DNA of 55,709 nt, counting the filler, from Dirinaria sp. TL-2023a (Eukaryota): NCBI GenBank assembly GCA_051941275.1. It is 4 parts of 4 records of this genome, joined end to end, with 100 filler letters (N's around TTAATTAATTAA, not from the genome) between each part and the next. Parts side by side here need not be neighbours in the genome. Positions count along the whole stretch, not along the records: positions 27,934 to 41,779 come from JAVEBF010000646.1; 3 more parts are not named here. One strand, given 5' to 3'. A program made the translations under genes and the position numbers. The notes beneath the pieces were generated by a model. That model did no database searches. It had not been told where the DNA came from and saw nothing but the letters and a program-made list of their open reading frames with translations. Of the stretch, positions 4,672-52,788 are shown one piece after another. How positions within the stretch are numbered: position 1 is the first letter of the stretch; every line of letters starts with the position of its first letter.

Positions 4672-5718
4672 ATGGCAGAGACTCAAAGAGCCCCAGTGCC
4701 TGCGCATGAGATGATCTATGAGCAGCAACAATTGCCCTCTTTACGTTCAAATAGGGGAAAGTATGTGGAACCCTCCTCAACCGGCTGGATGCGGCCAACT
4801 TCACGAGACACCCCCGTGGAGGAGATGCGCAGACGGTATAAGGAGGACGGATATGTCTGGATCAAGAATCTTATGCCCCGCGAAGATGTCTATGATATGA
4901 GGGAACAGTACGGAGGCTCCAAGTCTCAGAATATACGTAGTCTGATAAGTTGCTGAAAAATCACTAGTTACTTTACTCACATGTCTCCAACTGGGCTTCT
5001 ACTTCCTAACACTTCTCCTCGCGATGGTATTTTCAACTCAGCCCTGGACCCGTTAGCTCATCAAGGCGTTGGAGGCACCCCAGAACAATCCGCTCTCGAG
5101 CTCATTGATGCTGCTCATGCAACCCCTGTATATCGGAAGTTTCTTACCCATCCTGATCTTCGGGGCTTTGTCAGAGAATTCATGGGATGGGAGCAGGAGG
5201 TTCTTCTCAAGCGTGGCATTCTTCGACATCATTCCCCCGGCAGCCTGAGCACCGGCATCCATTATGACCAGATCTTCCTCCGCGGTGGGGAGCCAGAGTT
5301 TCTCACCGCATGGGTGCCAATTGGCGATTGTACCGCGACAGGCGGGGGATTGATGTACCTCGAGAAGAGTGCGGAGCTAGGCAAAAAGATTGAGAAGGAC
5401 TTTACTGAAAAAGCAAAGCTACTGCCGGCCGGAGATCGCATTAGTGCTTTCAATGCCAATATGGAAGCTGGAGGCTTTATATCTCAAGACGCCGATGAAT
5501 TCAGTCGCATCGAGGCAGAGGGAAAACTCCGGTGGTTGGTAGGTGACTATGAAGCTGGAGATGTTGTGTTCCACACTCCGTGGATGATTCATGCGGCCAC
5601 ACAGAATGAGGATGAGTTTGGTAGGATAAGGCTGGCTTCGGACCTAAGGTTTTATGAGAAAGGCGCAGCATTGGACAAGCGCTGGATGAAGTTCTTCACA
5701 TATAATGACGGCTTATGA
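4672..5718 (+). CDS. Phytanoyl-CoA dioxygenase (PhyH)-like Fe(II)/2-oxoglutarate dioxygenase
   Basis: YKEDGYVWIKNL, HxD motif (GIHYDQ), TAWVPIGD, GDVVFH..MIHA and RLASDLRF. One intron at about 4908-4968. Confidence 0.85.
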
Positions 5719-6129
5719 TGTTAAAATTTGGCCCCGAGCATCCCGGCGGGAGGGAGCGATATAAGTTCTCAAGACAATGTCGTGCTCGCCACTTTTATTT
5801 TCCTTCAATGAATTGATTTAAAGAGGGATCAGTCGACGGTTCTACGTTATATTTGCACTTTCCTTTCCGCTGGTGCCTGGTCCGCTGCTTCTCTCGGCAA
5901 AGTGAGTTTCAAGCTCGCCTTTCAGAATTGAATGAGACAAGTCGGATCTTCGGTGAAACTGTAAGGTCAGGTACAAGTAGAGCACTTTAAGGTAGGTAAC
6001 CTCTAGATATTTTTTAGGGTTGGATTCAGATAGTTTCTGCCAACCCTAAACTCGGGAGCTTTTGACGCCATCCTGAGATAGTGATGTCTGGGCTCCGCGC
6101 CCAACAACATTCAATTCTACCGGTCCGAG

Positions 6130-13881: not shown

Positions 13882-13981
13882 NNNNNNNNNNNNNNNNNNN
13901 NNNNNNNNNNNNNNNNNNNNNNNNNTTAATTAATTAANNNNNNNNNNNNNNNNNNNNNNNNNNNNNNNNNNNNNNNNNNNN
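13882..13981. other. Artificial contig spacer N44-TTAATTAATTAA-N44
   Basis: 100-nt linker with stops in all six frames, identical at three positions. Confidence 0.98.
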
Positions 13982-27833: not shown

Positions 27834-27933
27834 NNNNNNNNNNNNNNNNNNNNNNNNNNNNNNNNNNNNNNNNNNNNTTAATTAATTAANNNNNNNNNNN
27901 NNNNNNNNNNNNNNNNNNNNNNNNNNNNNNNNN
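27834..27933. other. Artificial contig spacer N44-TTAATTAATTAA-N44
   Basis: Same 100-nt linker. Confidence 0.98.
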
Positions 27934-28610
27934 ATGATATTTAGAATGCAAATAGCATTAGCTGATATGCGCAGCACAAAGTGACATTCAAACGCTTCGC
28001 TCCAACTAAGCTAGGCACTAGAAAGGGTGTGGAATGACTGATTAGTTGTGAAGTTGCTTAATAGAGATGTTAAAGAGCTCGGGACAAGCACGGCTCTATA
28101 GCGGGCTTGAATGTTTTTCTGGGAGGTTAATTAAGGGCGGGTAATACTGGGATGAAGTTAGGTTTTTCTTTAACTTTATAGATATCGCTTCGCTTTGTTT
28201 GTAATACATTCAGCAGATCGAATGTGGAGAGTGAAATGGAGGAGGGGAAAGGAGGTTGTTAAGGATGTATCATTGTGACATTGTCTTCGAGGAAGGAGAG
28301 TCAAGGACAAGGGGTTAGGAAGTTGTGATAGCGGAAGAGAGATATGAAGATAGCGACGATCTTTTTTCTTTTAAGGAAAGAGGCTTTTCAGATGATGTTG
28401 CTTGAATTTTTTTTTTTTTTTTTTTTTTTTAAAGAAAAGAAAAATGTAGATGTACTCGCTCGACGAACCTGAGAAGCAAAGCTGGTGCATGTTTTCCCCT
28501 ACTCTATTATATCTATTATCTGCATACATTTAACTCATCGAGCATAGAATCAAATCGGCAACACACGCCCACACTCGCTTTCTATCAGCCTTCCGAACAC
28601 CCAGTTCGTA

Positions 28611-29462
28611 TTAATCTTTGAGTATTTTTCGGGCCATAACCATACTGTCCCTGCCAAAATCCTTTTCGATCTTGAGCCAAAGGTCTTTGGGATCCAGCTC
28701 GAGATTATCTTGGCGCTCCTTTTTCACCGCGAGCAAGACATCCCGCAATAGCGGCATGGGACGATCTTCGGCCGCTGGCTGTGGCGGATTGGTCTTTCGT
28801 AAAGAATTCTGCTCCACAGGATTATCAAAGATTTTATCGATCCCGGTCGCTTTTTGCGGGATGCTCTCGGAAACCGGCGGCCGGTCTACCGATTGTAGGA
28901 CGCTCTTGGAGATCCCGCGGGCTTTTTGTATGAAGGTTTTGGGAAGGTTTCTCCAGTCCACCGCAGATTGTCGGACTCTTAGGACCAGAGGGCCGAAGTT
29001 CTGTTCCGCTGATTGTGAGAACATGAGGAGCAGGTAGGCACCTACCCACACCGAAGCGACATAGATAACGCCGACGAGGAGTAGCAGACTCGGCTTTATC
29101 GACAAAACCGAGTGTACGAATTTCAATTTCGATCTTGTGCTGATCGTGCGATACCATTCGTAGAGTTTCCAATGTGCCCAACAAAGGGCGCGTTCGCTGT
29201 CACGCACACGCGGCATTGGTTTGTATGAACCACTTAAACTCGAGATGATTGCCGCCAGCTCTATTTCCGCCAGATCTAGGCACACCGCGTGTACCATCGC
29301 TGCTGGAATCTCAAGAATCTCTACCAGGCTGAGCAAGCAGGCAGTGGTGTATCGTAAAGCGGTGTTGATGGCAAATACGGCGAATGCCACGCTTATCACT
29401 GCCATCAAATTCAGCCATATGTTCTTGGATATAGCAGTTTCTGTTCGTGGTTGGAATGGCAT
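28611..29462 (-). CDS. Unrecognised membrane protein, tandem family member A (283 aa)
   Basis: ATG at 29462 with TATAAAA about 110 bp upstream. Hydrophobic segments. AYLL...RQSAVDW...QKARGI matches member B (VYLL...RQTADW...RKAKQI). Internal repeat QS.VD...QKA.GI.K. Confidence 0.7.
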   Translation of the reverse strand: MPFQPRTETAISKNIWLNLMAVISVAFAVFAINTALRYTTACLLSLVEILEIPAAMVHAVCLDLAEIELAAIISSLSGSYKPMPRVRDSERALCWAHWKLYEWYRTISTRSKLKFVHSVLSIKPSLLLLVGVIYVASVWVGAYLLLMFSQSAEQNFGPLVLRVRQSAVDWRNLPKTFIQKARGISKSVLQSVDRPPVSESIPQKATGIDKIFDNPVEQNSLRKTNPPQPAAEDRPMPLLRDVLLAVKKERQDNLELDPKDLWLKIEKDFGRDSMVMARKILKD

Positions 29463-29612
29463 TGTCGCTGTGTGGTTCTGAGAAATTCTGAATACGTGAC
29501 GTGTGGCGGTCTTCGATTGTGTGATAATTGGAAACCAGACTGTTGAAGGCAATGAGTGGGAGAATGACTTTCTTTTATAGGCGTAGATATATAGTGATGA
29601 ACTTTGAAAACT

Positions 29613-29754
29613 GAACAATAACGAGATTGTTCGTTCAACAAGCAGGGGGTACAAACCACTGATCTCACATGAACAAGTGCATTGAGTATATCATGTTTTT
29701 CGTTGGTCTTGCGAAAACAAATCATCGATCTCAACACAAACAGGTTCATTGAGT
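29613..29754. promoter_or_regulatory. Upstream cassette A: palindrome plus two GAACAA-N4-ATTGAGT-like boxes
   Basis: GAACAAT-aacgag-ATTGTTC (29613-29632), GAACAAGTGCATTGAGT (29671-29687), AAACAGGTTCATTGAGT (29738-29754). Confidence 0.7.
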
Positions 29755-30790
29755 GTTCCATGTTTCCTTGCACTGTCCATTCCAAATCTTGAAACCAACC
29801 GAAGTTTGTAACAGCTGAGGAAAGCAAATCTGGCTATGGGCGTAATTCAGATACACATATTTTGGCCTACATGCTTGCCATACTGGCAATCATGATGAGG
29901 AAAAAAATACTAGGAAGATGACTGAAACGCAAACACGAGCAATTTCCAACATCGATGGGATGGAGATGATGAGGTTTAGAAAGAAAGAGGGGTGAGATTG
30001 TTTAGTATATATCGCTTGTGTTCATGCAAGCAGCAACGAAATAGTTCATCGATCGGTATTGATGCTATGTAAGTACCTAAGGAAGGAAAGAAAACAAGCT
30101 TGGTGAAAGGAGATTTGTTTGCGCGTGATTAGTAGGGAGACCAGACTTAATAAGGCTAGCGCCAGAACGCAGTTGTCCGGTCTTTAAAACACCAACAGCT
30201 TGATTTGCTTGAAAAGCCAGACGTAGATTGCCACGCATAGATTCATACTTATTCCAGATATTGATCCCTAAATACCCCAAATTTCAGCGTTGCCTATTGA
30301 TTTTATACTCGTGCATAGGATATACATTGGAGTAGTTATCAGTGTAGTGTATTCACTTGATCTAGCTGGGTTTGATGAATCTGGAATCAAAATTTGGATT
30401 CCTCTTAAAGAAGTATCGGACGAATATGCTGATGATTTGAAAGACGAATAATAATTTGAACACACATTAATACGGGCTAGATGCGATGAGAACATTTCAG
30501 AAGAACATACAAGTAACGCATCAAAAACCGCATTTCTTTTGATATCTCGAGTTGTTTTCTCTCAAGAGTAAGTCACTTTTAATGATAGCACAACAGAGAA
30601 AAAGAAGTGCGAGGGAAAGGGTCAAAAATTCAGAAAAACTGAAACCTTTCAATTATTATATTGCTAGTCGGTAAGAATTAGGCGAAGAATTGAAAAAAGT
30701 GTTGCATGCATTTAAGCACCTCCTTTTGTCCACAGACTTTCCCCAATCTTTCGCATCTGCCGGTACGGATCTCCGATCAATTGCTCCCTT

Positions 30791-31480
30791 TCAGTCAGTC
30801 TTCTGTTTAATCATCACTATCGGAGCCTCGCCGTCAAACATCTGAATCTGTACCTCATCGACCTCGGGCAAGAAGACCTCGAGCTTCGCTTCAACTATTC
30901 CGTTGTACTTGAACTTCAGTGTGTGTGTCTCGCGCAAGAAAACACCCTTCCCATACTTCTTCAAGTTCCGACAGATCTGTTTCGCTTTTCGTAAGACGGT
31001 TGCGAACCTTTTTGCCCAGTCCGCGGTTTGTCGACATATCCTATCCAGGCGAACGAAGACCTCCGCCAGGAGGTAAACGGCGAATACGCAGATGGTCACC
31101 GAACGAGTACCAACGTTCAAGACCACGGGCCAGGTCAAGGAGTCAAGGAACCGCTGAACCACGTAACCGAAAGCTCCCGCCAAGGAGCACTTGACGATTA
31201 AGAAACCAATTACCCAAATATCACCTTCCAGAACTAAGGGCCAGTCCATGGATTGTAGAAAAGTCTTGACCAGGCAACCAAAGAGCCATATAAAGGAAGA
31301 AGTGCCGAGCGCGAAAGTGGTGTCCACAATATGGAATACGACCTTCTCGCCCATGTATTTATAGATCGGTAGCAAATTTGTGACCTCAACTGCGCACAAT
31401 AAAGCGAACCCAACGACATACGTTGTAAGTATCACTCTTGTTGATGTCGTAAAGAACGGGCTAAGTTTTTTAGATAGCAT
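30791..31480 (-). CDS. Unrecognised multi-pass membrane protein, tandem family member B (229 aa)
   Basis: About four hydrophobic segments. Internal repeat FLQSMDWPLVL / FLDSLTWPVVL. N-terminal half aligns with member C. Confidence 0.72.
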   Translation of the reverse strand: MLSKKLSPFFTTSTRVILTTYVVGFALLCAVEVTNLLPIYKYMGEKVVFHIVDTTFALGTSSFIWLFGCLVKTFLQSMDWPLVLEGDIWVIGFLIVKCSLAGAFGYVVQRFLDSLTWPVVLNVGTRSVTICVFAVYLLAEVFVRLDRICRQTADWAKRFATVLRKAKQICRNLKKYGKGVFLRETHTLKFKYNGIVEAKLEVFLPEVDEVQIQMFDGEAPIVMIKQKTD

Positions 31481-31660
31481 TATTGCGCGTTCGAGTATAG
31501 ATTGCCGTGTTGCTTTAGAGTTCTTTAAACACTGGAAAATCGAAGTGGCTGAAGTTTTGAGATGTGGACGATGCCTGAAGCTAGAGACATGAGAGCAAGA
31601 AGAGCGAAGTCGACTGTCTTAAATATTCGCAGATGAGTAACAAAGACTTACGAGATTTTG

Positions 31661-31873
31661 ACACAACAGTGACATTGTTCGCTCAAATGAGCAGAGAGAA
31701 CAACAAGAGTCTTACATGAACAAACAACAGTGACATCGTTCGCTCAAAATGATAGAGAGATCAATAAGAGTTTTACATGAACAAGTGTATTGAGTGATTC
31801 ACTGTTTTTCTCATTTCTCGTCCAATATGACAGAAGAACAAAAGTAAATCCATCATGAACAAGTGCTTTGAGT
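31661..31873. promoter_or_regulatory. Upstream cassette B: palindrome doubled by an approximately 61-bp tandem repeat, plus two boxes
   Basis: ACACAAC-agtgac-ATTGTTC (31661), AAACAAC-agtgac-ATCGTTC (31722), GAACAAGTGTATTGAGT (31779), GAACAAGTGCTTTGAGT (31857). Confidence 0.7.
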
Positions 31874-32008
31874 ATCTCTATCACAGTGTATACATGAAGA
31901 TAACGATGCAAGCAGTATCTAGAAGCAGTGGATGGTGGGAACTTGCATAATTGATTGGCTATTAGAAGGAGTATCAATCTTGCTTAGAGAAAATCATCCT
32001 TTCTGTGG

Positions 32009-32497
32009 CTATGCACTAAAATCCCTATTAGACTCTGCCGGAATCAAATAGGAAAAAATCAACCCTACCACGTGAAAACAATAGGCGATCACCCAACCAT
32101 CAAGTTCGAAATTCGAGGGGCAGTCCACGGATTGTAGATGCATCTTGACCAGTATCTTGACCAGGCAAACAAGGACCCATGCGTGGATTAAAGTGGCAAG
32201 CATGTAGGTGATCGACCAAAATTTGAAGGCAAATTTCGCGTGCATAGATTTCAATGTCGGCGTCATCTTCTCGAGCATGTTTTGATTGCACTCCAAAAAG
32301 AGCACGCAATCAGATGCCCACAACAAAGCGACTCCAGTGACATACGCCGTGAATACCACGTTTGGCGATGTTGTAAAAATTGAGCCAAATCCTTCCAGTG
32401 CCATAATTGCGTTTTCGAGTATGGGTGCCTTTAACTGCGAGCACGTTTCTTTCGACATTGCTAGTGCGACTCCGAGCGCGGGTATTGTTGTATCCAT
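32009..32497 (-). CDS. Unrecognised membrane protein, tandem family member C (shorter; alternative ATG at 32404 is homologous to the ATG of B)
   Basis: IFTTSPNVVFTAYVTGVALLWA matches B FFTTSTRVILTTYVVGFALLCA. CLVK...LQSVDCP...WVI matches B CLVKTFLQSMDWP...WVI. Confidence 0.65.
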   Translation of the reverse strand: MDTTIPALGVALAMSKETCSQLKAPILENAIMALEGFGSIFTTSPNVVFTAYVTGVALLWASDCVLFLECNQNMLEKMTPTLKSMHAKFAFKFWSITYMLATLIHAWVLVCLVKILVKMHLQSVDCPSNFELDGWVIAYCFHVVGLIFSYLIPAESNRDFSA

Positions 32498-32670
32498 TTG
32501 TCTCGAGTATGGAATTCGTATCTCTGTAGAGCTCTTCAAGTATGAGAAATCGAAGGGGCTTCAGTTTGAAATGTGTACGATGGCCGAAAGCTAGACAATT
32601 TAGAGCAAGAAGAGCGAATTTGACTGTCTTTAATTTTCGCAGCTGGGTAACAAAGACTTACGAGATTTGT

Positions 32671-32907
32671 GAACAACAGTGACATTGTTCGCTCAAAATG
32701 TTGGCGATATCGATAATGGTTTTACATGAACAAGTGTATTGAGTGGCCCATTTTGTTTTTTTCTTGCATTTCTCGTCCAATATGACAGAAGGGCAAATGC
32801 AGGTCTCACGCGAACAAGTCTATTGAATATCCTACTTTTCCTCGTATTGTTCGTCTGACGCAACAGGAAACTCGAGTGTATGTCTCACACGAACAAGGTT
32901 ATTGAGT
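32671..32907. promoter_or_regulatory. Upstream cassette C, between member C and divergent gene D: palindrome plus three boxes
   Basis: GAACAAC-agtgac-ATTGTTC (32671), GAACAAGTGTATTGAGT (32728), GAACAAGTCTATTGAAT (32812), GAACAAGGTTATTGAGT (32891). Confidence 0.7.
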
Positions 32908-33130
32908 ACTCATTTTCCCTTTGTCTTGGCCCCTTAAGTCTGTTTCTTTCCTTATCTGTCTCGTCTTCTAACCAAGCTCGGCAGTGTTTCTTGCTCTGGA
33001 AGCACACTCTGAAAAACGTATCTTGGTGCTGCCGATTATTCACCATTTAGCCGGATTTTCATCACTCAGTTTCTCTAGAAACCTATCCATACTCGGCTCC
33101 TCATCCTGGCATTGTGTTTCTTCCAGCATC

Positions 33131-33439
33131 ATGCCTCCTCCCATCAGACTCTCACATGGTCGCTTGTACGGAGTGGAGAACAGCGCTAGCCGGTGGAATC
33201 AGCTTGTGGTTATCGGTATCTTTATCCTTCTTATTCTTTCTGTCATGAATGCGATGTATATAGAGTATACTCAGGGCCGAGCCCATGGCCAGCAGGACTG
33301 GTTCAGAGCTGCGCCACTGATCCGAGAGGAGTACCATGACAGCGATGATAACTCGGCACACACCCGCAGAATGGCACGCGATGAAGACTATCATGCCGAC
33401 GATGAAGGCGGGAGCAGCCTTCTAAGTTTTTGGTCGTAA
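33131..33439 (+). CDS. Small single-pass membrane protein D (102 aa), unrecognised
   Basis: ATG in CATCATG context, TM segment LVVIGIFILLILSVMNAMYI, acidic repeat REEYHDSDD / RDEDYHADDE. Confidence 0.55.
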   Translation: MPPPIRLSHGRLYGVENSASRWNQLVVIGIFILLILSVMNAMYIEYTQGRAHGQQDWFRAAPLIREEYHDSDDNSAHTRRMARDEDYHADDEGGSSLLSFWS

Positions 33440-34653
33440 CCAGCGTTTGGTAGGGAAAAGGAGCTGAAGTCCTTCGAAAAGTCTGATTTAGATGGACCGA
33501 CAAAATTAATAGTAATAATAGTATAACCGCGATGTTCATGATTGCAAGCAACAGATTCTGCTACTATCGAATAGATGCTAAACGTTGTTTTGTGCACTAT
33601 ATGATAATGAAATATTTGCTGTTACATTAGATCGCTCTTGCAGACTCTTATCAGAGAATTTTCTTGACCACACTTCTCGGCCGACTTCGAAAATTTGGCT
33701 GGCCAACTCGAAAGGGGTACAACGAGGAAAAAATTTTGATTGACCTACGTAGTTCAGCCCGAATCTGTCTGGTGTTTAGCTCAAATATGGCCCCCAAGTC
33801 CTGGTTCAGACCCTGCGGATTCTCCCTTCTCTCAGTATACGGCATTTGCTCTCACCGGCCCAACATCTTCTTTTTTGGGGGTCATGTAGGATCCAGTTTG
33901 CGGAATTCTGTAAGTTTCAGTATCGGATTTATCACTCGGCTCGCGAACAGCAGCCTCTCGTTTTGGTAAAAATTTGGTGAAAATATGTTGAAATATGGCG
34001 TCAAAATCAATATTTCTCAAGGAGCGCACTGTCCCGCCTTCCATGCTGTCGCATGTTGTAATAAGGAGAGTTTAGTTTGCAGGCTCACTGAGCGTGTAAA
34101 GGTGGGTCTGTAGTGGACTTCACTCATCTCTATCACTGCCGTTCTTGGAACTATTTTTGTGCTCCTTTATCCCTCGGTAAAAGTTCCGCCAACCCCTGGA
34201 ATGAGAACGCTTGTGGTGCATAAGATATGTACGCCAAAGTAATTTGTCATGAATCCTATTGGGTACCTGTTGGCTCGCACATGCATAGAAAGCGATAGTT
34301 GCTGCCCTCGAGCCTATATTGGGCTGGTGGTAAGCTTACGTGGGTGCAAGGTGACGCATTGGTTGCACCGCGTGGACTGACTGATCGCCAGTGCTCGGTA
34401 CGTGTGTAGATGGAAACAGGAGTTTGAGATCGCAGTATGCCGACCATATGCATTGTAAGTTCCCAAAGTTCAGCAGCACTAAGCACGAACTATGTTGGTG
34501 GTTTTGCAGATACAAACTATACTTGTTGTACCAAAAACGAAAATCCTTCGCTCATAGTTGGTGCTTAAGAATGGTACAGGCTATCTTTTAGTCTCAACAT
34601 TTGTGAAGCAAGCAGCGATAGTCTTGTGTGAGCTCGCTATTGCCATCGCAGAC

Positions 34654-35997
34654 TTACCAGTGTGGGAGTATCTGCATTAAGTCAAAAGTCTTGTATACAC
34701 CAACTGGTAGCTCTCTTAGACCGACTAGAGCTTCCACAATCATATAAGTCCTCGCAGCAGCGAATAAAAAAACCATGGGCAGTAGTAGACCAACTTCCCA
34801 GAGTAGCATAGGTTTGGCGTGCTTCTGCTCCGTCTCAAAAGCGTCAAGTCGATTTCTTGTGCTTTGACGCTTCGTCCTCGCACCACTTTCAACATCTGGT
34901 TCATTTGCAAGCATTTTCTTTTTAAGCCCCAGCCAAATGAGGTACTTGTCCCATCGCCCAAAGCGATGACGAGCCGCGATGGTTTCGAAAACCCACCAGA
35001 AAATAGTGGCACCAACAATCAACAAGCTTGAAATCCGCCATAGAAGTGACTCAGATCGCGTTGGGAATGTGAAATTCCAACCGATCAGGTGAAAAGCTGA
35101 GTATGTCGTTGTCATAAAGAAGAGTGCAAACTTCTCAAAACTGCCGATGTCGGGAAATCGATCGTTGGGAAAGCATCGAAGCGGTCTTTCACGATTGTCG
35201 CAACGTAGCTTGAAAAATCCCATCACATCGTAGCCACAAGTGAAGGACTGTTTAGCTACGAAATCAAGCGGAGTGTGGAGATAAGGCGCAGCGGCTTCGT
35301 CTCCAGCGTCAAGCAAAATTTGAGCAGTTGTGGCTTCTATGGTTAACACAATACCTTTCTGAACGTTATTCGGTTTGTGCAACCAACAAACAAACGTGCC
35401 CAATGTGCAGAGCACGATCGCACCTGCTGAGAGCTCAAGGGCCGATGTCGCCAGTCGTAGGATTGCACGACCCAGCAACTGGATGACAAGCCAGCAAGCT
35501 TGTAGCAAAGTGAGGACACGTGCAAGTGTGTCAGCTTTTGACTTGTCCCAGATCTCTTCCACAGCAAGATCCGGATACTCCATGTATTGATGTTCCACCA
35601 GGTATGCCAATTGGCGGCTGTTGACCAAGAAAGGAGTGCTGTCTCTCGGTTGCAGCAGTATACCGCCCATATCTGCAAAGAATCCGTGACGAAGTGTCCA
35701 AGCCTTGTATCCGAGTCCATGAAATCGCTTCACTGACCGTCGTGCTGAAGCAAATTGGCCGATTGCCACAGCGAGTACGAGTTCCGGGCCTACTATGGCC
35801 CACAGCATCCATTTTGCTTTGATGCATAGCCTGTCTAAATTGCTTGCATCAGGATGCGGAATGTTTAGGCATACCGCCGTCCAAGTACATAAGAAAATGG
35901 TAAGAAAAGACGACCAGACTATGTCTATTGTGCCTCGGCCCTCAGGGCCAGACACCCATCCAATGATAGAGGGCGTTGAGTTGCGAACCTCGTTCAT
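34654..35997 (-). CDS. Uncharacterised fungal multi-pass membrane protein (GWV..P..RGT family)
   Basis: 447-aa intronless ORF with motifs of a widespread fungal family: GWVSGPEGRGTIDIVWS, LCTWTAVCLNIP, HGFFADMGG, EIWDKSKAD, WLHKP, WNFTFPT and LRELPVGVY. Confidence 0.85.
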   Translation of the reverse strand: MNEVRNSTPSIIGWVSGPEGRGTIDIVWSSFLTIFLCTWTAVCLNIPHPDASNLDRLCIKAKWMLWAIVGPELVLAVAIGQFASARRSVKRFHGLGYKAWTLRHGFFADMGGILLQPRDSTPFLVNSRQLAYLVEHQYMEYPDLAVEEIWDKSKADTLARVLTLLQACWLVIQLLGRAILRLATSALELSAGAIVLCTLGTFVCWLHKPNNVQKGIVLTIEATTAQILLDAGDEAAAPYLHTPLDFVAKQSFTCGYDVMGFFKLRCDNRERPLRCFPNDRFPDIGSFEKFALFFMTTTYSAFHLIGWNFTFPTRSESLLWRISSLLIVGATIFWWVFETIAARHRFGRWDKYLIWLGLKKKMLANEPDVESGARTKRQSTRNRLDAFETEQKHAKPMLLWEVGLLLPMVFLFAAARTYMIVEALVGLRELPVGVYKTFDLMQILPHW

Positions 35998-36765
35998 GAC
36001 AGAGGATCAAGAGGTTGTAAGGATCATCCCAACCAGCATGACAGTAGTTGGAAACCCGATTCTGACTTGAGGCATAATGGCGTAGAATATCTCATATATG
36101 AAAGCCTACTCAAAGAGAAGCAGTCAGGAGCACTTGTGACGCATAGCTGAAATTAGCCTTTACTGCATGATTGATCCTATTCAAGCAGCCCCTTAGACAG
36201 GATATTCCCATTTTTGGGATCTCTGCATGATCCCAAACAAGAAACCCTGTAGCAACTAGTTATTGATCGTTAGAGAAGGCCAATGGTAGTTCAATACTGA
36301 CGCTGAAGTCTACTATAGTAACAGCAGATCGGCAAAGCGATGTTCTGGACCGGCGCCGCGGGCGCCTGTTGCCCCTACCGCCCAATGGCCATAGTATCTA
36401 AGATCTATTCTCGAGTATGACAGTAGAAGTGTGATGCAACTTTGCTAATGCACAACGAACACGGCGCTTACTGGTTTCCAAAATTCATGGACAGGCGCGT
36501 ATGATCATTGGTGATTGGTGCTCTCGCTTTGGAGGGCATGGATGTGTCACCCAGATGGGCCTAGCGTAGCGACCATACATACGGTACTGTACAGTATTTG
36601 TGCAGTGGGCGCTTCCTTGTATTCTCAGCCTAATCCACCGGGGAGAGAAGAGGGTGTCGATTAAACAGAATCTTCCCCCGTGCATCACTTATCACAATAA
36701 TCAAAGTCGACACGCATTCCAGTTACTTTCCATTTTCAAATACGTAAACATTCTCGACAGCAGAA

Positions 36766-37710
36766 ATGGTCAAAAACGCCGCTCAGTTGCCACTATCAGC
36801 AGTCCCCAAGACTACTACAAGCGAGCCAGCACCTGTACTGGATGAATCTGATGAACAAAAATCTTACTGGCCATTGATAGCGTCCAAGGATGATCTTCCA
36901 GAATGGCTGCGCGATAACGATTATATTATCAATGGACATCCAATGCCTACATATTCATATCGGCGCTCTTTTCGTCTTTGGCAATGCTTGCATATGGAAA
37001 CTGTTAACATCTGGACACACCTCTTGGGCTCCGCGGTATTCATTGCTCTCGGTATCACTTTCTACAAGTACACCTCGGCTTCTGGAGGCTTTCCATGGAA
37101 CATAGGAGATCTCTTCGCGTTTAGTATTTCAATCACAGCAGCTGCTGTGTGTTTCGGTCTGAGCGCCACTTTTCATACTTTGAGAAGCCATTCGTACAAT
37201 GTGCATCACTTCTGGGGAAAGATGGACATTCTTGGCATCTGTGTGCTTGCCCTTGGAGGTGGAATGTCAATGACATTTTACGCGTTCTATTGTAGCCCCG
37301 CGACTCAAAGAGCCTATTGGACCATTAATGCAATCTCAGCCGCTGCCGCGGGGGTCATACTGTTCGATACGGGTGGAGGTGGTAGTAAAATGAGGACTTT
37401 GCGAGGCGGCGTGTTCAGCTTGTTGGCTATCACTGCGATTTTGCCAGCTTTCCATAGTTCAATTCTGACTGGGTGGACTCGGGCGTCCAATGAGATTGGC
37501 ATACATTGGTATCTCGCTGAGGCTCTGTCTCTATTACTGGGTGTGTGTCTTTTTGTTGGCAGACTTCCGGAGAGACTTAGTCCTGGCACCTTCGACATGT
37601 TCGGTCACTCGCATCAGCTGTTCCATTTTTGCGCTCTCTTCGGCACGGCATTTCATGTCGTTGGACTTGTGTCAGGATTCAAGTATCGCCAAGCAAATCT
37701 GAATTGCTAG
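36766..37710 (+). CDS. PAQR / hemolysin-III family (Izh/mPR-like) 7-TM protein
   Basis: LPEWLRDNDYI, ETVNIWTH, SATFH, KMD, PERLSPGTFD and GHSHQLFH zinc-binding motifs. Intronless. Confidence 0.93.
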   Translation: MVKNAAQLPLSAVPKTTTSEPAPVLDESDEQKSYWPLIASKDDLPEWLRDNDYIINGHPMPTYSYRRSFRLWQCLHMETVNIWTHLLGSAVFIALGITFYKYTSASGGFPWNIGDLFAFSISITAAAVCFGLSATFHTLRSHSYNVHHFWGKMDILGICVLALGGGMSMTFYAFYCSPATQRAYWTINAISAAAAGVILFDTGGGGSKMRTLRGGVFSLLAITAILPAFHSSILTGWTRASNEIGIHWYLAEALSLLLGVCLFVGRLPERLSPGTFDMFGHSHQLFHFCALFGTAFHVVGLVSGFKYRQANLNC

Positions 37711-38960
37711 GGTTAAATTTGTTCGCCTTTACATTGTGGGCAGATCGTAGTTATTAGAGGGGAAAGCGGTCTGAAAATCCAAATAGCTTTGCGTCGTCGA
37801 ATGCAGTATGCTTGAGAGTGCATATTCTTGTCTTAGAGCCTTCTCAGATTGTGGGGTTTCTTACAGTCCGCTTGTCCGAAACCGAGTGATATCGAAGGGT
37901 ACATGTTCCCGTTGAGAAGTTGACCATTCCCATAGAGCACATCAGCGAGCTCTAGCTAAGCGTTTCTTCGCGTTTCTAGCCCCTTGTCAATGCCTGGGTG
38001 TAGGTCTCAAAGAGGCCTCCGGGGAGTTCTCAAAATCTTAGCGCGAGTTTTGCCGCCCCATTGTCCAAGCCTCCAGCGAGATTTATCCGACTATTATTAC
38101 CAATCTTTCTTTCAGCATTGGCGGAATTCTACTCGATTATCATTCAGTGAAGGGGGCCAAAATAAGATCAGATCGAGTTACAGAGCCTATACCAAAAATG
38201 GCGCGCGTGCGATATTATTGCAAAACGTCTTGCAGTTCCGCATGTAAATCTTTATAGTCCTGGATTGAACGGCCAATACCTTGCCAGCGTCGATCCGGGA
38301 AATCATGACATATAATATAGTAGCATGAAATGTAATGTAGAAACGTAAAGTGGCATCGCGCTACCTGGCTTTCGCAGGTTCTGGTTCAAGATAATAGTCT
38401 TCCTTGCCATCCGAACGATCTTGGATATTGATCGACAAGCATGACATTAACGTAACTGGCAGCAGAGAAACACTCGTACCTAATGTTGCTCAGTGCATGA
38501 CTGTCTGTCTATTTTCCAGATCCAGACGTGGTCTCGAAGCTTCTTGCTTCCCCCGAAAACGGCCTGCCTTCTCTACCTCCACCACGTTCCCTCATACACC
38601 CTCAGCATCCTTTCTCGGCGCCTTTTGCTTCCTCGGGCAATACTAATGATTACAGGAGTCCACAATCTCTCATTCGGCCGCTCCTTGGGGATGTCTGTTA
38701 AAGTGGCGCTAATAAAACAATCCACTTGACTAACAGACTGCTACTTGGAATTTTTCCTCCCTCTTCTTTGAATCGAGAGGAAAAGTGTTTCCGTCGGCTT
38801 GCCTCATCATTATCGTGATTTAAAGGTAGATAATGTAGCTGGACTACGGTATAATATAAATGGGGTGAACAGTAGGTCATGGAGATCTTTTTGTGATTCC
38901 ATAGAAGTGAAAAACTCCTAGTTGGTCTCCGTTGTTAGCGACAGCCACTCGACAAAAGAT

Positions 38961-39085
38961 CACGAAAACCCTTATTGGGCTAGGCTAATCTGCACCCACT
39001 TAGCAGGCTTGGCAGGGCAGCCCCTCAGCTTGCCAAGCAACACTTAAAGTACCTCTCACGCTAATGAACGCGTCTTCTGTCGCGT
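38961..39085. promoter_or_regulatory. SCB/MCB-like sites upstream of the sirtuin
   Basis: CACGAAA (38961), ACGCGT (39068) and TCGCGT (39080). Confidence 0.5.
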
Positions 39086-39240
39086 TAATTGACAAAGGGA
39101 TCTATGTTCTCTTCACTGCTTGATATATCCTGTACATATAATTGTCCTTCTCTACGCATTCCTATGATGGCAGTACACATATGAATGTGGACCTTGACTG
39201 TAGAGTTGCCAGAATTAAAATCTTTCATTGTCAGCCCTAC

Positions 39241-40937
39241 ATGGCAATACTCCAGATTGCTGAAGACGACAATCGCCAACTACAGAATGTTGCCAATATT
39301 CTCGCTTCGGCCAAGAAGGTCGTGCTTTTCACAGGTGCTGGGATCTCTACTAACTGCGGAATACCTGTGGGCAGACGAATCGTCCATTCGCCGGTTGTAC
39401 AAAAGCTAACACTCGTAAGGATTTCCGCTCGGAGGAAGGCCTCTATGCCCTCATCCAAGCCAGCTATGACAGAGCTCCACAGCAGTCATCTCAATCCGGT
39501 GCACGAGCGAACGATGCTATTCCCATAACCTCACCCAGTCGACCCTCTGTCCCAAGCAACGTCAGAGGCAAGGACCTTTTTGACTCTGTTCTATGGAAGG
39601 ATCCTGTCAGCACCTCAGTATTCTATACCTTCATCGCATCGTTACGAAAGAAGATCCGAGAAGAGGTAAAGCAGACTTCACCGACCCATCGCTTCATCCG
39701 GACCTTGCGCGACGGTAGAAGATTGGTGAGATGCTATACTCAGAACATTGACGGCTTAGAGAACCGGGAGGGGCTGTGTACCGATTTCGAGAGGGGGAAC
39801 GGCGTACGAAGTAGGTTTAGGAAGAAGGCACTCGCGTTACCATCCAAGCTCCTGTCGCAGAAAGCTACAGGCGGTACTCAGGATGGAGGTTGCGAAGTGG
39901 TACAGCTTCACGGCGACCTCGAGACCCTCCGATGCACTTTCTGCAAGAAAATCTGTGGGTGGGAAGAGGGCGGTAGGGAAGCGCTGCTCCTAAGTGGTAG
40001 AGCGCCTGAATGCTTGTCATGTACCATCCTAGACCAAGACCGCCGAGACCGTGGGAAACGTGGCACTAAGATCGGTACATTACGACCAAATATAGTCCTT
40101 TATGGGGAAGAGCATCCCTCGGCAGATGCTATATCGACAATTAGCACGCATGATCTCGGATTTGCACCTGACGTCCTTCTGATACTCGGTACTTCTCTTC
40201 ATGTCCATGGCTTAAAGGTGTTGGTCAAAGAATTTGCAAAGTCAGTGCATGCAAGACCAGGAGGAAAAGGCAAGGTTATTTTTGTGAACCTGACGAAACC
40301 ATCGGAAAGTGTATGGAAAGACACCATCGACTACTGGGTCTCTATGGACTGCGACCAATGGGTTGGTGTACTCAAGCGTCACAGACCGGATCTCTGGCAC
40401 ATACAGACCGAGTTGAAACCCCAGATAACCAAGGTCGGTATTAGTAAAGCAAAGTCCAATCCTATTAAAGATGCCCCTTTTTGTGGAGAGGACCAGAAGG
40501 AGAACGCCCCTACCGGTTCATGGGGTATCTCGAAGTCCGGAAAGAAAATGGCGTCGGGCTCGCCCAAGAAGAAGGTACCTTTGTTCGATATGACTGAGGG
40601 TTCGAGAACAGTGCTCTCCGAACATTCGCCCTCCCAGCCTGCAACGAAGTGCTTGAAACGCAAACGTTCTTGCGAGAACCAGCAGCTGCCCACTCCACCA
40701 TCAAGTGGACATCGGGCCAGATTTCTAGATATGGCCGCTGAGCCCATCGAGCCAGCTATGAGTGACCCTCGAACACCGTCAAAGCGGACGGCAGCCGAAG
40801 TTGTCATTTATCAGGATCCGACTCCTAAACGTCGACGAACAGACAGTGGTCGCAGCACCGATCCTCAATCGAGCGGCCAGAGACGCGTGAATCGTCCAGC
40901 GAAGTCTCTGCAGGGAAAGTATGTCCATCGCCAATGA
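39241..40937 (+). CDS. HST3: NAD-dependent deacetylase, Hst3/Hst4-like sirtuin
   Basis: TGAGISTNCGIP|DFRS (intron 39367-39419), YTQNIDGLE, QLHG, CxxC/CxxC zinc ligands, RPNIVLYGEEHP and GTSL. HST3 versus HST4 not certain. Confidence 0.9.
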
Positions 40938-41659
40938 AACTCCAGTCTCAAGAGGGTTTCAAGCGGGAACCCACGGGAAGAGGCTTCCGGTCCAGTGGCC
41001 AAGACTTGCCACCCACCATTAGAAGGTGTAGCTAGGGCTGATGTCACAGCGACTTACCATGTCATCGCAAGAATTGCTGGGGTCAGTGAATATTGCAAAG
41101 GAGCTGAGCGTTGCGGCAGTGCTGAAGCATGTTACATATGTACTGTACTCTTCAAGTACTACTACTACCTTGGGGTAGGTTTGCAGGCTGGCAGCAGCCA
41201 GGAACCCTTTAGCAGGTTAGCGACTTTCTAGAAGGTTTCTGCTACACCATTTCACTTGCATCGCCTACCCTTTTGTCAGCTACCTTATTGATTGGAGGAC
41301 TGGGCAGTAAGTGAGCTCTTGGCAGGCGGCTGTGCCACTAGCTAAGACGCACGTCACTGCGAGGCAGAAGAGATTCGAAGCAATTCCTCGATTCATCCAC
41401 CAGTCCATGTTCCATCGCATGCTTAATCAGCCTTGTGGGGCCTCGAAGCTTTTCTTCGTAGCTTTTATACATACCTCTACCCCTAAAAATCTCATTGCGC
41501 CCGACTTCTGCTGAGCCGATCTTCCAAACCCTTCCCACAGGAACCTCCATTTACTGTACCTTGACCCCACCAGCAACCCCATCATCCACATCTCAGTATC
41601 CCCACCAACTTGATTTCCACCCCAAGGCAAAAAAAAAAAACATAAAAAACATCCCCAAA

Positions 41660-41779
41660 ATGGCCGACCCCTACCGCCCAACTTACTACGAGCAACAAGA
41701 AACCTACCAAACCCACTCGAGCCAACCCTACCGCCCCGCAGACTATACCCCGCAGTCGGCACTGACGCTGTCCCAAAAC
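41660..41779 (+). CDS. 5' end of a gene truncated by the contig end (MADPYRPTYYEQQ...)
   Basis: CAAAATGG start context, Y/Q/P-rich open frame running to the gap. Confidence 0.5.
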
Positions 41780-41879
41780 NNNNNNNNNNNNNNNNNNNNN
41801 NNNNNNNNNNNNNNNNNNNNNNNTTAATTAATTAANNNNNNNNNNNNNNNNNNNNNNNNNNNNNNNNNNNNNNNNNNNN
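41780..41879. other. Artificial contig spacer N44-TTAATTAATTAA-N44
   Basis: Same 100-nt linker. Confidence 0.98.
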
Positions 41880-47671: not shown

Positions 47672-50600
47672 ATGCCATCCACCCTCTCGCGACTGAAAGC
47701 TCGGCTCCGAAGCCGTAGCACAGAAGACCGACTACGCTCGAGCAACACCCATGATGGCGAGGCGGGGAACAGAGCCATCGACTCGATTACCCACAATCCA
47801 AACCCTGTAAGCAATATTTTCCATATGCCGGCAATCAGACTTTGCTCTGGTCTCCGCAAACTAGCAACAAAGAGCTGACATGTTCTTCTTAGCTTCCAAG
47901 GACCCCATCACCCTCCGATCCTCTCATCGTCGACTCATCCCATCCAAACCTCCCACCCAGCGCAGTCGAGTCAGCTTCCACTACGCCTACTCTTGAACGC
48001 GCACCCTCCAAAAACTCGGCTCCCGAGTTAACCCCATCGCAACAGCTTTGGAATAGAGCATACAATGCCGTCAAGCAAAAAGAACCCAAGTTGATCGATT
48101 CATATGAACGAATTCTGTCTCTTGAATTGCGACAAGATAATTTGCATAGTGATTTGTCTCAGGTTTCTAACCTGGTTGAGCAGGTGAACGAAGCGGAAAG
48201 GTGGCAGCAGATGCGGCAGCTCGTCCAGAAGCGGCTGGCAAGTTTAGAGAAAGAAGAGAAAATGAAGCAGGTCATTGGCACCGGCATTCGAATCGTTCTC
48301 TCCTTTAAGGATGCCATGAGCCAGGCTCTACAGCTGGTGCCTCAAGCAGCTCTGGCTTGGGCAAGCCTCTCGTTTGCCTTACAAGTGAGATCCCTTTTCT
48401 ATACTCTTTTTGACCCAAGTTGACGTTTGGAGATCTTGTTAAATCCCTCCACTGAAAGCCGATCAAATCGGGACGGGACTGCCCATGTCCTTGCCAGAAT
48501 GGGATGGTACTCTGAGTTGTCGGCCCTCGTCTTCGATGACGGTGGGACCTATGCTACATCGTTGGCAGGGATACAAACACAATTAGAAAGCCGAGTTGTG
48601 GACCTCTTTGAGCAGGTAATCTTGTTCCTTGTAAAAAGCGTCTGCTCGTGTTTTAAGAATCGAATTTCCACCGTCCTACGCGACCTACTGAAGCTTGATG
48701 ACTGGAATGGCAGCCTCAAAGGTGTCGAAGATGCGGAGATTTCTGTTCGACGGGACTACAGTGTACTTGATATTCAAGACGTCAGATTCAAATTGGAGGG
48801 AATCTTCCAATCTGTGGGAAGCTTGAAAAGAGCACTAGTTCACGACCAAACGGATCAAACTTGTTTCCAACATTTACGTGTGACCGATCCACGCGACGAT
48901 AAAACCCGCATCGAGAACACTAAAGGTGGCTTGCTACAGGATTCGTATCAGTGGATTCTTGACCACGTGGAATTTCGGCAATGGCGCGAAGACCAACAAA
49001 ACCGGTTGTTTTGGGTTAAAGGCGATCCCGGCAAAGGGAAGACGATGCTGTTGTGTGGCATCATTGACGAGTTGAAGAAACCGAGCGCCCACGACGGACT
49101 TCTGTCGTTCTTCTTTTGCCAAGCTACTGACGATCGCATCAACAGCGCAACAGCAGTGTTGCGCGGTTTAATATTTCTTCTCGTCGATCAGCAGCCATCG
49201 CTCATTTCTCATATCCGGACAAGGTACGATCATGCAGGCCAAAGCCTCTTTGAAGATGTGAATGCTTGGGTGGCTCTGTCAGAGATTTTCTTGAATATCT
49301 TACGAGACCCTGGGATGAAGAATACCTTCTTAGTCATAGACGCTCTCGATGAATGTGCGACAGATCGATCTCTACTTCTTGACTTGATAGTCAAGGAGGC
49401 GTCCGTGCCTTCTAGTGTAAAATGGGTCATATCCAGCCGGAATTGGCCCGAAATCGAAGAAAGATTGGATCTCACGAGACAGAAAGCTACGTTGTGTCTT
49501 GAGCTCAACGATGAGGCAGTCTCTAAAGCTGTCAGCAAGTATATCGAAATAAAAGTGCAGGCTCTGGGGAAAACTAAGCGCTACGACACCAAAACTCAGG
49601 ATCTTGTACAGAAACATTTGAATATTAACGCTGACAACACTTTTCTTTGGGTAGCATTGGCCTGCAGCCATCTTGCAAGAGTTCCTCGATATCAAGCACT
49701 GGCTTGTCTGAAGCAATTTCCGCCAGGTCTCGAACCCTTTTACGAGTCCATGATACAACATATGTGTTCTTCCGAGGAAGTTGGCCTCGACTGCCTCAAG
49801 CGAGTTCTTGCTTTGGTCGGAACCGTGTACCGGCCAATCACCCTGCTGGAAATAAAGGTTCTGATCGACATCCCTGAAGATTTTTCTGATGATCTCAGAT
49901 CACTGGGGGAAATTATTAACCGATGCGGTTCTTTCTTGACACTTCGAGAGCACACTGTGTATTTCGTTCATCAATCGGCTAAAGATTTTTTGTTTCGAAG
50001 AACTCCAAGTTTTATATTTCCTTCTGGTGAGGCGGAGGTTCATTGCAGTATCTTTCGAAAGTCGCTTGAGTCTATGTGTCGGACACTTCGTCGTGACATA
50101 TACGGATTGGGCGCTCCAGGAACCCCTGTCGAGGAAGTAGAAACGCCAGACGCGGATCCATTGGGTGCGATTCGTTATTCTTGTGTCTACTGGGTTGAAC
50201 ATTTAGCGAAGTGGAATTCTGACAGATCTGTAAAAGACGATAATGGCCTTATGTACATCCATACGATCGATGATTTTCTGGAAAAAAAATACCTGTACTG
50301 GCTCGAGGCTTTGAGCCTCATCCATGACCTTTCAGAAGGAACACGTTCGGTTGTTCGGTTGGAAGGCTTGTTCCAGGTATGAGCCAGATCAGTCCACCTT
50401 CGTACGGTATGTCAATAACATAATTAGGACTGGAAGCTCGATTCACAGCCAACTGAGTTATTACAAGATGCACGCCGGTTTATTTTATATCACAAATTCG
50501 TGATAGAGAACTATCCTCTTCAAATATACTGTTCAGCCCTTGTTTTCAGTCCGCTCAACAGCTTGATTCGCCGGAGATATGACGGGGAAGTGCCAACATG

Positions 50601-52788
50601 GATTCGGACTTGTCCGACAATGGAAGAGAACTGGAGTGCCTGTCTTCTCGTACTTGAAGGCCACACGGCAAAAATCCGTTGCGTCCGCTTTTCGCCTGAT
50701 GGCAAGCTTCTCGCATCGGTGTCATCGGATGCGACCGTGAAAGTCTGGGAAGTCATCACTGGCAAGTGCGTACGTACGCTCAAGGTACATGGTCACAATG
50801 TCGAGTCTGTCGCTTTTTCTAGCAGTGGCAAATATCTTGCATCTTTAGAGCTCCGCAAAATAATCATCTGGAACGCGGTAAGCGGCAAGATTCTGCATAC
50901 AATAATAGGACATTTTACCCAGATCTCGTGGTCTCATCCTGAAAAGTCACCTCTTGCTTTTTCGTACGATAGTGAATTCTTAGTCGTGATGTCAGCACGC
51001 CACTCTTTGGAAATATGGAAGATAGTCACCGATAACTGCTCACGAATAGTCGAGCGTCATATCGGTCAATCCGAGGTGCTTGCTCTTTCCCTGAATGGGG
51101 AGTATTTTGCATCAGCAGAAATTGGCCAGGCTAGAGTCTGGGGAGTACATAGTGGTAAATGCTTGCAAACATTCGAGTGTGGTACCGACACCGTTAGAGA
51201 GATGGTCTTTTCGCCTAACGGTAAACGCGTAGCATTCATAGTCAGGGAGGAAACAAGGATCTTGGACAGCCTCAGTGGCGAATGCCTACAAAAATTCCGA
51301 CATGAAGTTTCATCATACGGCTACCCTAAAATCTCCTTTTCGAACGATGGCTTGCGTCTTGCATATTGGTCGACTTCTTGGTGGCGCACTAACCCTCCAC
51401 GAATTTTGGACGTCCTTAGCGGCGAAGATTTACAAACTCTTCCACTGACCAAAGTGCCAGCCGACACCATAGAATTATCTCCTAATGGCAGACTTCTCGC
51501 GTCAATCTCCAACGATGTTGCTATTAGAGTTTGGGATGTATCTGAACGCAAAGGCCTAGGAAAGTTCGGAGGTCATTCTGATCCTAACCAAACGATCGCG
51601 TTCTCTCCTGATACAACGCGTGCCGTCTCGGTATCGATTAAATCTAAAATTCTCCAAGTCTGGGATGTAATTAATGCCAAATGCTTGCACACACTGCAAG
51701 GTCACCATGCTGAGATTTTCTCATTCGACATTTCGAGGAACAGCATGTTCGTTGCGTCGGGATCACGTGATACTACCGTAAGGATCTGGGAACTTTCTCA
51801 CGGCCGATGTTTGCACATTCTTAAAGGACACACTGGTCTAATACAGGAAGTCCTCTTTTCGCAGAGTAACAGACGCCTTGCATCAATATCTAGGGAATCG
51901 GGTGGATACGAAAAGAAAACTAAATATGAAATTAGAATTTGGGACGTAGTCAGCGGCCAATGTCTATCAATTCTCCGAGGATCTGCTGCGAATACTCTTT
52001 GTTCGGCAATCTTTTCCACAGACAGCAAACTTCTTGTATGTTACTTCTACGAGGATTCCACAAAAATATGGGACACGATTAGTGGAGCATGTTTACAAAC
52101 GATTGAACACCGTAGATCTTCATCTTTATACAACCTTGTTTCGATCGGGTTATCTCACGATAATAAGTGGCTCGCGTGCGAATCAAACAATTTCATGGTG
52201 GATGTTTGGGATGTGAGCAGTGGCAAAAACATTAAACAATGTGCAGGCCACGTCAGCGAGATCACATCGATCTGCTTCTCATACGATCACAAATATCTGG
52301 CGTCTTCGTCGTTGGATGAGACTATCAAAGTCTGGGATATGACCGACAGCAAATGCCTCCAAACAATCGATGTCGGTGGACGCATTCTCCACTTGTCGTT
52401 CGATGTCGCCTCCTCGTATCTTCATACTGAAATGGGAGTTTTCTCCCTTGATCTTGCAGTAACCTCGACGTCTGTAAACAATGAAGCTAACAGTAAGAAA
52501 CCACAGCAGCAGGGTTACGGTCTAAGCGCTGACTCTACATGGATTACACACAATTCTGAGAAGCTCGTATGGCTTCCTGCAGAATACCAATCGCAGGATT
52601 TACATCTCAGTGGTTCAACGGTGATTCTGGGTATCAAGAGTGGAAGATTGTTGAATATGAGCTTTGTCGAGTCAGAGGAACTCCTGAGGCAACTTGAACT
52701 TCAGAAATCTCAATCCACCTGTGAAAATCACAGCCAGGGCCAGATGCAAAGCGAAGAAGAGTTGATAAGGACAGTCATAGAGCTTTGA
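47672..52788 (+). CDS. Fungal NLR: NACHT_N-like domain + NACHT + WD40 repeats (HET-E/NWD-like)
   Basis: QLWNRAY..YERIL N-terminal domain, TDPRDDKTRIENTKGGLL, Walker A GDPGKGKT, Walker B FLVIDALDEC, HQSAKDFL and multiple GH..WD repeats. Introns about 47807-47892, 48385-48432 and about 50377-50428. Confidence 0.93.

Follow-up and report, generated by a model that had tools for sequence, protein, structure and literature searches.

The array and its promoter elements

The window analysed here (55,709 nucleotides of Dirinaria sp. TL-2023a, GenBank assembly GCA_051941275.1) consists of four contigs connected by N-TTAATTAATTAA-N linkers at positions 13882-13981, 27834-27933 and 41780-41879. Because the contigs were joined, genes on opposite sides of a linker are not neighbours, and the true genomic context of the gene array described here is 27934-41779 only (JAVEBF010000646.1, contig C646). 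This contig harbors three genes for small hydrophobic proteins (A, B and C), the open reading frame (ORF) D, a gene for a membrane protein of 447 amino acids (aa), a HlyIII-family gene and a Sir2-family gene. A first-pass annotation of this DNA had described A to C as co-oriented, intronless membrane protein genes and D as a fourth, divergent one. The coordinates of all four ORFs and the common orientation of A, B and C on the minus strand were reproduced, candidate membrane helices were detected by hydropathy (three in A, four in B, three in C and one in D), and a search for canonical intron candidates in A to D gave none.

Gene A: 28611-29462, minus strand, orphan of 283 aa; an ORF this long in 0 of 300 resamples
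Gene B: 30791-31480, minus strand, orphan of 229 aa; an ORF this long in 5 of 300 resamples
Gene C: 32009-32497, minus strand, 162 aa with three helices; paralog of the first ~108 residues of B
ORF D: 33131-33439, plus strand, 102 aa with one hydrophobic helix, divergent, 240 bp from element C3; uncertain gene

Upstream of each of the genes A, B and C lies a cassette of constant order, in which element 2 and then two to three copies of element 1 are found above a TATA or TATA-like box, with the sites 150-400 bp above the gene start. Element 1 reads GAACAAG-N3-ATTGAG, i.e. GAACAA followed by ATTGAG at a fixed gap of four bases, and occurs in seven copies with unchanged spacing. Element 2 is an inverted repeat, GAACAAY-N6-ATTGTTC, followed by GYTCAA. 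The left halves and the inverted repeat resemble sites of high-mobility-group (HMG) factors, the right halves of element 1 those of alpha-box factors.

TATA box of A (TATAAAAG): 29572-29579, minus strand; the homologous place holds TATTTAAG in B and AATTAAAG in C
Element 2 of A: 29613-29638, no strand assigned; perfect GAACAAT-N6-ATTGTTC (two HMG-type sites), then a partial alpha-box-like half
Composite element A1: 29671-29686, plus strand; GAACAAG-N3-ATTGAG
Composite element A2: 29738-29753, plus strand; left half degenerate, right half TCATTGAG fits the MAT1-1-1 consensus
TATA-like box of B: 31618-31625, minus strand
Near TR-box of B (AACAAAGAC): 31639-31647, plus strand; matches the PaHMG5/Ste11 site in 8 of 9 bases; a counterpart in C (32649-32657), none in A
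Element 2 of B: 31661-31747, no strand assigned; two tandem copies, 61 bp apart
Composite element B1: 31779-31794, plus strand
Composite element B2: 31857-31872, plus strand; no critical A of ATTGA in the right half
TATA-like box of C: 32628-32635, minus strand
Element 2 of C: 32671-32696, no strand assigned; GAACAAC-N6-ATTGTTC and GCTCAA
Composite element C1: 32728-32743, plus strand
Composite element C2: 32812-32827, plus strand
Composite element C3: 32891-32906, plus strand; its right half (TTATTGAG) equals the ppgA site of Aspergillus fumigatus

The hydrophobic helices of A (residues 14-32, 42-60 and 126-144) are followed by a basic segment, a proline-rich linker and a C-terminal three-helix piece (approximately residues 236-282). 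B contains a basic helix after its fourth hydrophobic helix and an internal repeat of 37 residues, whose score exceeds those of all 150 shuffles (44 of 78 bases match at a period of 111). A PY-type motif, LPIY, was noticed in B between helices 1 and 2 (31358-31372); it is not present in C and may be due to chance. C is shortened: its stop codon lies just past the third helix, so that the basic helix and the tail of B are missing, and DNA similarity between the C tail and the 3' part of B was not found (p 0.85). Read-through of this stop codon was rejected, the next stop following after just four more codons. Met32 of C (32404) is homologous to the start of B, while the upstream ATG is supplied by an in-frame insertion of 87 nt (~32430-32516), and C possesses in-frame starts at Met1, Met14 and Met32. 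Among 300 resamples of the region, 45 contained an ORF as long as C. For B and C, an upstream exon (ATG ... GTAAGT) was considered and likewise rejected, since A has neither part, a TATA box lies just downstream in A and the frame would be closed in C.

For D, the place, the divergent strand and the single helix agree with the first-pass annotation, whereas its status as a gene is uncertain. ORFs of at least 102 aa were obtained in 257 of 300 resamples, and as the length is thus within chance, the status of D depends on a codon score above the 95th percentile of non-coding DNA, taken from a codon-usage model of weak power in which known neighbour genes score near zero. D is unrelated to A, B and C.

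Kinship and divergence of the genes

The proteins B and C are 38% identical over ~95 residues (E 1e-12), which is more than the short motifs to which their similarity had been ascribed. The three motifs said to be common to all members are in fact distributed pairwise, FTTS and CLVK..LQS.D.P being shared by B and C, and YLL..RQ..DW by A and B; an LQSxDWP-like motif recurs in A, B and C. The similarity of protein A to B and C is not significant, neither by BLASTP (E 0.07 and 0.77) nor in shuffle tests (p 0.135 and 0.237), and a profile comparison of A with B/C gave P 0.0096 at a probability of 4%. On the DNA level, A is colinear with B and C from the promoter through the leader (the score was reached in 0 of 500 resamples), and between A and B the colinearity extends into the coding region (semi-global alignment, 0 of 200 resamples). 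Judged from this colinear DNA, and not from protein similarity, A is an old paralog of B and C.

Over 93 aligned codons of B and C, the rates of nonsynonymous (dN) and synonymous (dS) substitution were 0.49 and 0.65, respectively. The resulting dN/dS of 0.75 indicates fast protein change, but positive selection is not established since the bootstrap interval (0.43-1.33) spans 1. Identity is nearly equal at the three codon positions (0.60, 0.66 and 0.61). On the other hand, the open frames of B and C were kept in just 139 and 37 of 5000 neutral simulations, and the two indels in their coding regions (33 and 12 nt) are both in frame. The array was also inspected for the signature of repeat-induced point mutation (RIP) and none was found. 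The proteins look as if they were required to exist and to stay hydrophobic, with a loosely constrained sequence.

Conservation of the promoter cassette

The upstream regions of B and C are more alike than their coding regions, as had been proposed. Identity amounts to 85/98 in the core, 106/132 in the distal part and 68/89 in the leader, the corresponding values being 174/279 for the coding DNA and 12/19 for four-fold sites. This corresponds to 80-87% for the promoter and 62% for the coding DNA, and the upstream regions exceed both the coding DNA (Fisher p 2e-7) and the four-fold sites, i.e. neutral positions (p 0.02). The distant member A retains the same cassette, with z scores of 9.3 against B and 13.6 against C.

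Pairwise comparison of the seven copies of element 1 revealed identities of 114/126 for both hexamers (90% each), 52/84 (62%) for the spacer and 294/777 (38%) for the flanks, a footprint that partly reflects the way in which the copies were identified, namely by their core. In a fairer test based on the colinear alignment of A and C, 38 of 43 motif columns were identical, compared to 169 of 277 elsewhere (p 3e-4). When the whole genome was scanned, four of seven exact matches to element 1 and five of 15 matches to a relaxed pattern (GAACAAK-N3-ATTGAV) fell into the array, within 3.2 kb, while reversed-pattern controls gave one and three matches, respectively. Four further matches to the inverted repeat in the genome did not form clusters, and the cassette pattern had 0 matches in metagenomes. 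Two single sites on other contigs were recorded. An inverted repeat GAACAAT-N6-ATTGTT lies in non-coding DNA ~400 bp above an ORF (L121, 1501-1520, contig C1156) and could belong to a member of the same regulon. The sequence GAACAAGGTTATTGAA (L112, 1501-1516, contig C598) differs from C3 by one base and lies in AT-rich DNA, with no long ORF over it.

Mating-type motifs in the array and in control promoters

MAT1-1-1 binds the sequence YYATTGAB (PMC8022922) and the HMG box of MAT1-2-1 an ATTGTT core (PMC4559316). The two Penicillium proteins interact and bind together to the tom1-2 probe, in which CTATTGAG (containing ATTGAG) is directly followed by AACAAT (PMC10512297). The TR-box consensus for a PaHMG5/Ste11-type factor was taken from PMC3730723; nothing further on binding sites was gained from PMC6562746.

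The Dirinaria genome contains MAT1-1-1 (PF04769, E 1e-27), while MAT1-2-1 was not recognised by eye among its eight HMG-box matches. To calibrate the motifs, promoters of the same genome were compared with a background of 239 kb and 916 windows of 500 bp. The STE3 promoter contains four YTATTGAB motifs (0.11 expected) and no GAACAAT. Similarly, an 800-bp stretch comprising promoter and start of the alpha-pheromone precursor gene contains two YTATTGAB motifs (0.16 expected) plus GTATTGAC, and no GAACAAT. By contrast, the STE2 promoter has three GAACAAT within 600 bp (0.10 expected) and no YTATTGAB. From these counts it follows that the alpha-box and the HMG motif sort cleanly by mating-type class. 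The pheromone gene (L108, ~5137-5830, contig C1355), to which the first pattern used gave no match, contains an intron and encodes an alpha-factor-like precursor in which KR follows each of four divergent, Cys-containing repeats.

In the array promoters, motifs of the alpha-box type and of the HMG type stand side by side. GAACAA occurs three, six and six times, while the maximum in the 916 background windows is two; GAACAAT occurs twice, once and twice (0.07-0.10 expected), clustered upstream as at STE2; and ATTGA is kept in six of the seven composite copies. The sexual-cycle promoter sites postulated by the first-pass annotation gain support from hexamers that match the STE3/alpha-pheromone and STE2 motifs and from their conservation between A and C. 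What is new is the fixed pairing of both mating-type-class motifs, for which the controls from the same genome speak. A published account of such a fixed-spacing composite, or of MAT binding sites in lichen fungi, was not found in a search that left most subscription journals outside.

Relatives and predicted structures

Within the searches made, A, B and C appear to be a lineage-specific family without known relatives, in line with what had been proposed. Pfam yielded no family for A and C at E values up to 1 and two chance matches for B, and no family for D or the separate tails of A and B. A search of 5.8 billion proteins with B, A and D, restricted to near lengths, returned the queries themselves or nothing, and an A/B/C profile run against 1.84 billion representatives matched A and B themselves only. 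The best scores in the ESM Atlas (0.79 and 0.84) were under its threshold, and the tail of A had no match among PDB sequences. Copies of the array genes were sought in the whole genome, and every match was on contig C646, corresponding to three copies at one locus. Due to the fragmented assembly and the nearby contig end, this copy number is a lower bound.

Single-sequence structure models were poor (mean pLDDT, the predicted local distance difference test, 44.6 and 50.8), and a fold search with the whole model of A gave only generic helical matches. The last ~45 residues of A (28614-28760), however, form a confidently predicted three-helix piece (pLDDT ~78-86 at residues 241-280). This piece may resemble DEK-C or helix-turn-helix domains.

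Regulation of the array

The orphan triplet and its footprinted promoter are real. From the paralogy, the open frames, the promoter conservation and the motif match to the in-genome controls, we infer which factors may bind and when, where and for what the genes may act. Most likely, with a probability of about 0.5, A, B and C are a lineage-specific membrane protein family under the control of mating-type-class HMG and alpha-box regulators and switched on in the sexual cycle. The products would be small membrane proteins with several passes, composed in part of a ~37-residue unit of a helix plus LQSxDWP. The array probably arose by local duplication of the whole unit of promoter, leader and coding DNA, first giving A and then B and C, with C shortened later. 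While the proteins would change almost freely and yet stay in frame, the promoter would retain sites of fixed spacing for HMG-fold sexual regulators, namely an HMG-type half (GAACAA) and an alpha-box half (ATTGAG) in two to three copies per gene, plus the inverted GAACAAT pair. Factors of the mating-type class would read these sites during the sexual cycle.

About half of the weight given to this reading falls on joint control by MAT1-1-1 and MAT1-2-1, whose direct targets the genes may possibly be after fertilisation. If both factors have to bind together, expression would be confined to cells containing both mating types, i.e. to the ascogonium, ascogenous hyphae and young asci, and the products would act on membranes there. 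The most specific version, in which GAACAAG-N3-ATTGAG is a MAT1-2-1/MAT1-1-1 AND gate and A, B and C are direct post-fertilisation effectors, is tentative and rather unlikely to hold in full. Were it true, A to C would act in nuclear pairing, in crozier or ascus development, or in spore conflict. The recognition of unlike nuclei and the building of the dikaryotic cell after fertilisation are described as unknown for filamentous ascomycetes (bioRxiv 10.1101/2024.12.09.627484), and joint binding by both mating-type factors is represented by one promoter probe in the literature covered (PMC10512297). The seven-copy site with its fixed spacing provides an exact oligonucleotide for a test of cooperativity and a pattern for scanning other genomes. 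Should the joint site fail, an ordinary, small family of orphans whose promoter is conserved would remain.

Several observations weigh against control by mating-type factors. Compared to YYATTGAB, only two of the seven composite right halves are exact, four deviate at one base, and in one the critical A is missing. No enrichment of strict alpha-box matches was seen, their number being one per array promoter (0.23-0.34 expected), and that of B lies outside the composite; moreover, 69 of the 916 background windows hold at least two BYATTGAB. The composite left halves read GAACAAG, the controls GAACAAT, and the control set comprises three promoters. The geometry also differs from that of tom1-2. 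As the copies descend from duplication, the motif counts are not independent, and gene conversion is an alternative cause of the promoter similarity of B and C. The other ten matches to element 1 in the genome are isolated and mostly located in coding or repeat-like DNA, so that no wider regulon is seen.

Other points of this kind favour a different factor. The eight HMG-box matches are located at seven places, and other HMG factors could bind. Element 2, a symmetric GAACAAT inverted repeat, resembles a homodimer site, a CAA core is common to the two halves of element 1, and a near TR-box for a Ste11-type factor is present in B and C. The STE3 promoter contains TGAAACA in an ACATGAA context resembling the left half. 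Hence, the genes could be real and the cassette functional but read by a non-MAT factor, either a Rox1-like or Ste11/PaHMG5-like HMG dimer or Ste12 on a degenerate site. In that case, the family would have its role in symbiosis, stress or general development. The family labels of the other HMG genes are tentative assignments based on their sequences. This is a serious though unlikely alternative: the asymmetric ATTGAG half is as strongly conserved as GAACAA and agrees with the STE3/pheromone motif, a motif missing from the STE2 promoter, and TGAAACA was not found in the array.

It is improbable that the genes are decaying duplicates or near-neutral orphans, with the cassette similarity reflecting a short repeat that was copied and homogenised. 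The dN/dS interval spanning 1, the equal identity at the three codon positions, the shortening of C and its codon use, which resembles non-coding DNA, would fit decay. However, the frames stayed open against the neutral expectation with indels in frame, A and B exceed the ORF length expected by chance, the colinear alignment shows stronger conservation of the motif columns than of their flanks, and a RIP signature is missing.

A poison-antidote meiotic driver like wtf or Spk-1, suggested by the first-pass annotation, is very unlikely. In this reading, the paralogs, or a long and a short version of a single one, would be made in the ascus and kill spores without them. In its favour it could be adduced that the orphan proteins are hydrophobic and evolve fast, that the promoter would allow expression after fertilisation, that C has three in-frame starts, that LPIY is found in B but not in C, that the region differs among related fungi and that Spk-1 is of similar nature. 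Against it, the three copies share a single locus, and Pfam (E up to 1) gave nothing apart from the chance matches of B. Moreover, the array has no intron candidate, no intron-based dual promoter, no FLEX site (GTAAAYA, searched in 28401-33600) and no N-terminal PY motif (none in the extension of C, in A or in D), LPIY lying between helices 1 and 2 of B, possibly by chance.

Comparison with known systems

The closest parallel to the proposed mating-type-class regulation of the array is Penicillium chrysogenum tom1 and Aspergillus fumigatus tomA, a gene whose function is unknown and whose promoter contains MAT1-1-1 sites in a cluster (PMC10512297, PMC8022922). On the minus strand, element 2 shows the order of tom1-2, TTGAR and then AACAAT. 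Compared to tom1-2, however, element 2 is longer by two bases and its alpha-box half is imperfect, and in element 1 the order is reversed. Tom1 is a conserved nuclear protein (PMC10512297), whereas the array encodes orphan membrane proteins.

Induction during sexual development is frequent among fungal orphan genes and concerns more than 20% of them in Pyronema confluens (PMC3778014), and thus the general kind is already known. The orphans of P. confluens and of Podospora anserina (bioRxiv 10.1101/2024.12.09.627484) are likewise short, lineage-restricted and fast-evolving, but those sets were defined by expression and the array by promoter anatomy.

The Schizosaccharomyces wtf proteins are also hydrophobic and multi-pass, diverge fast and have a conserved sexual-cycle promoter site, comparable to the putative one of the array (bioRxiv 10.1101/2021.09.30.462505; PMC10721834). 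According to the same sources, wtf drivers possess six exons and a poison promoter with FLEX in intron 1, both of which the array lacks. They also make two transcripts and carry PY motifs in an N-terminal tail that is specific to the antidote, whereas the only PY-type motif of the array is the internal LPIY of B. Furthermore, wtf copies are many and dispersed while the array occupies one locus, and no sequence match to wtf was obtained in the searches made. Spk-1 of Neurospora sitophila is, like the array products, a small, genus-restricted predicted membrane protein with no known domain (PMC8092558). Spk-1 has introns, an edited site and more than 100 diverse homologous matches in Neurospora, and the likeness is a loose one.

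Contig setting and neighbouring genes

The array is located ~680 bp from the contig end with A as the edge-side gene and may therefore continue past the edge. Synteny was studied in 54 metagenome loci anchored by the sirtuin (Sir2-family) gene, with flanks of up to 10 kb, many of them shorter. Within these flanks, no match to A-D, the HlyIII gene or the 447-aa gene was found. The closest sirtuin loci (78% identity) retain the downstream neighbour. Their upstream neighbour of the sirtuin (L035, 7749-8879) encodes a secreted-looking, Ser/Thr/Pro-rich and Cys-rich protein and was not seen on C646. In a comparison of 14 of the 54 loci, groups of loci were found to differ in their DNA upstream of the sirtuin. 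On C646, the intronless 447-aa membrane gene, which has no Pfam match, and the HlyIII gene are located between the array and the sirtuin (34654-35997 and 36766-37710, respectively), and neither of the two adjoins the sirtuin in the related loci fetched. On another contig of the window, a NACHT-domain gene is followed by a WD-repeat-like ORF (48499-52788), an arrangement resembling NOD-like receptors (NLR-like).

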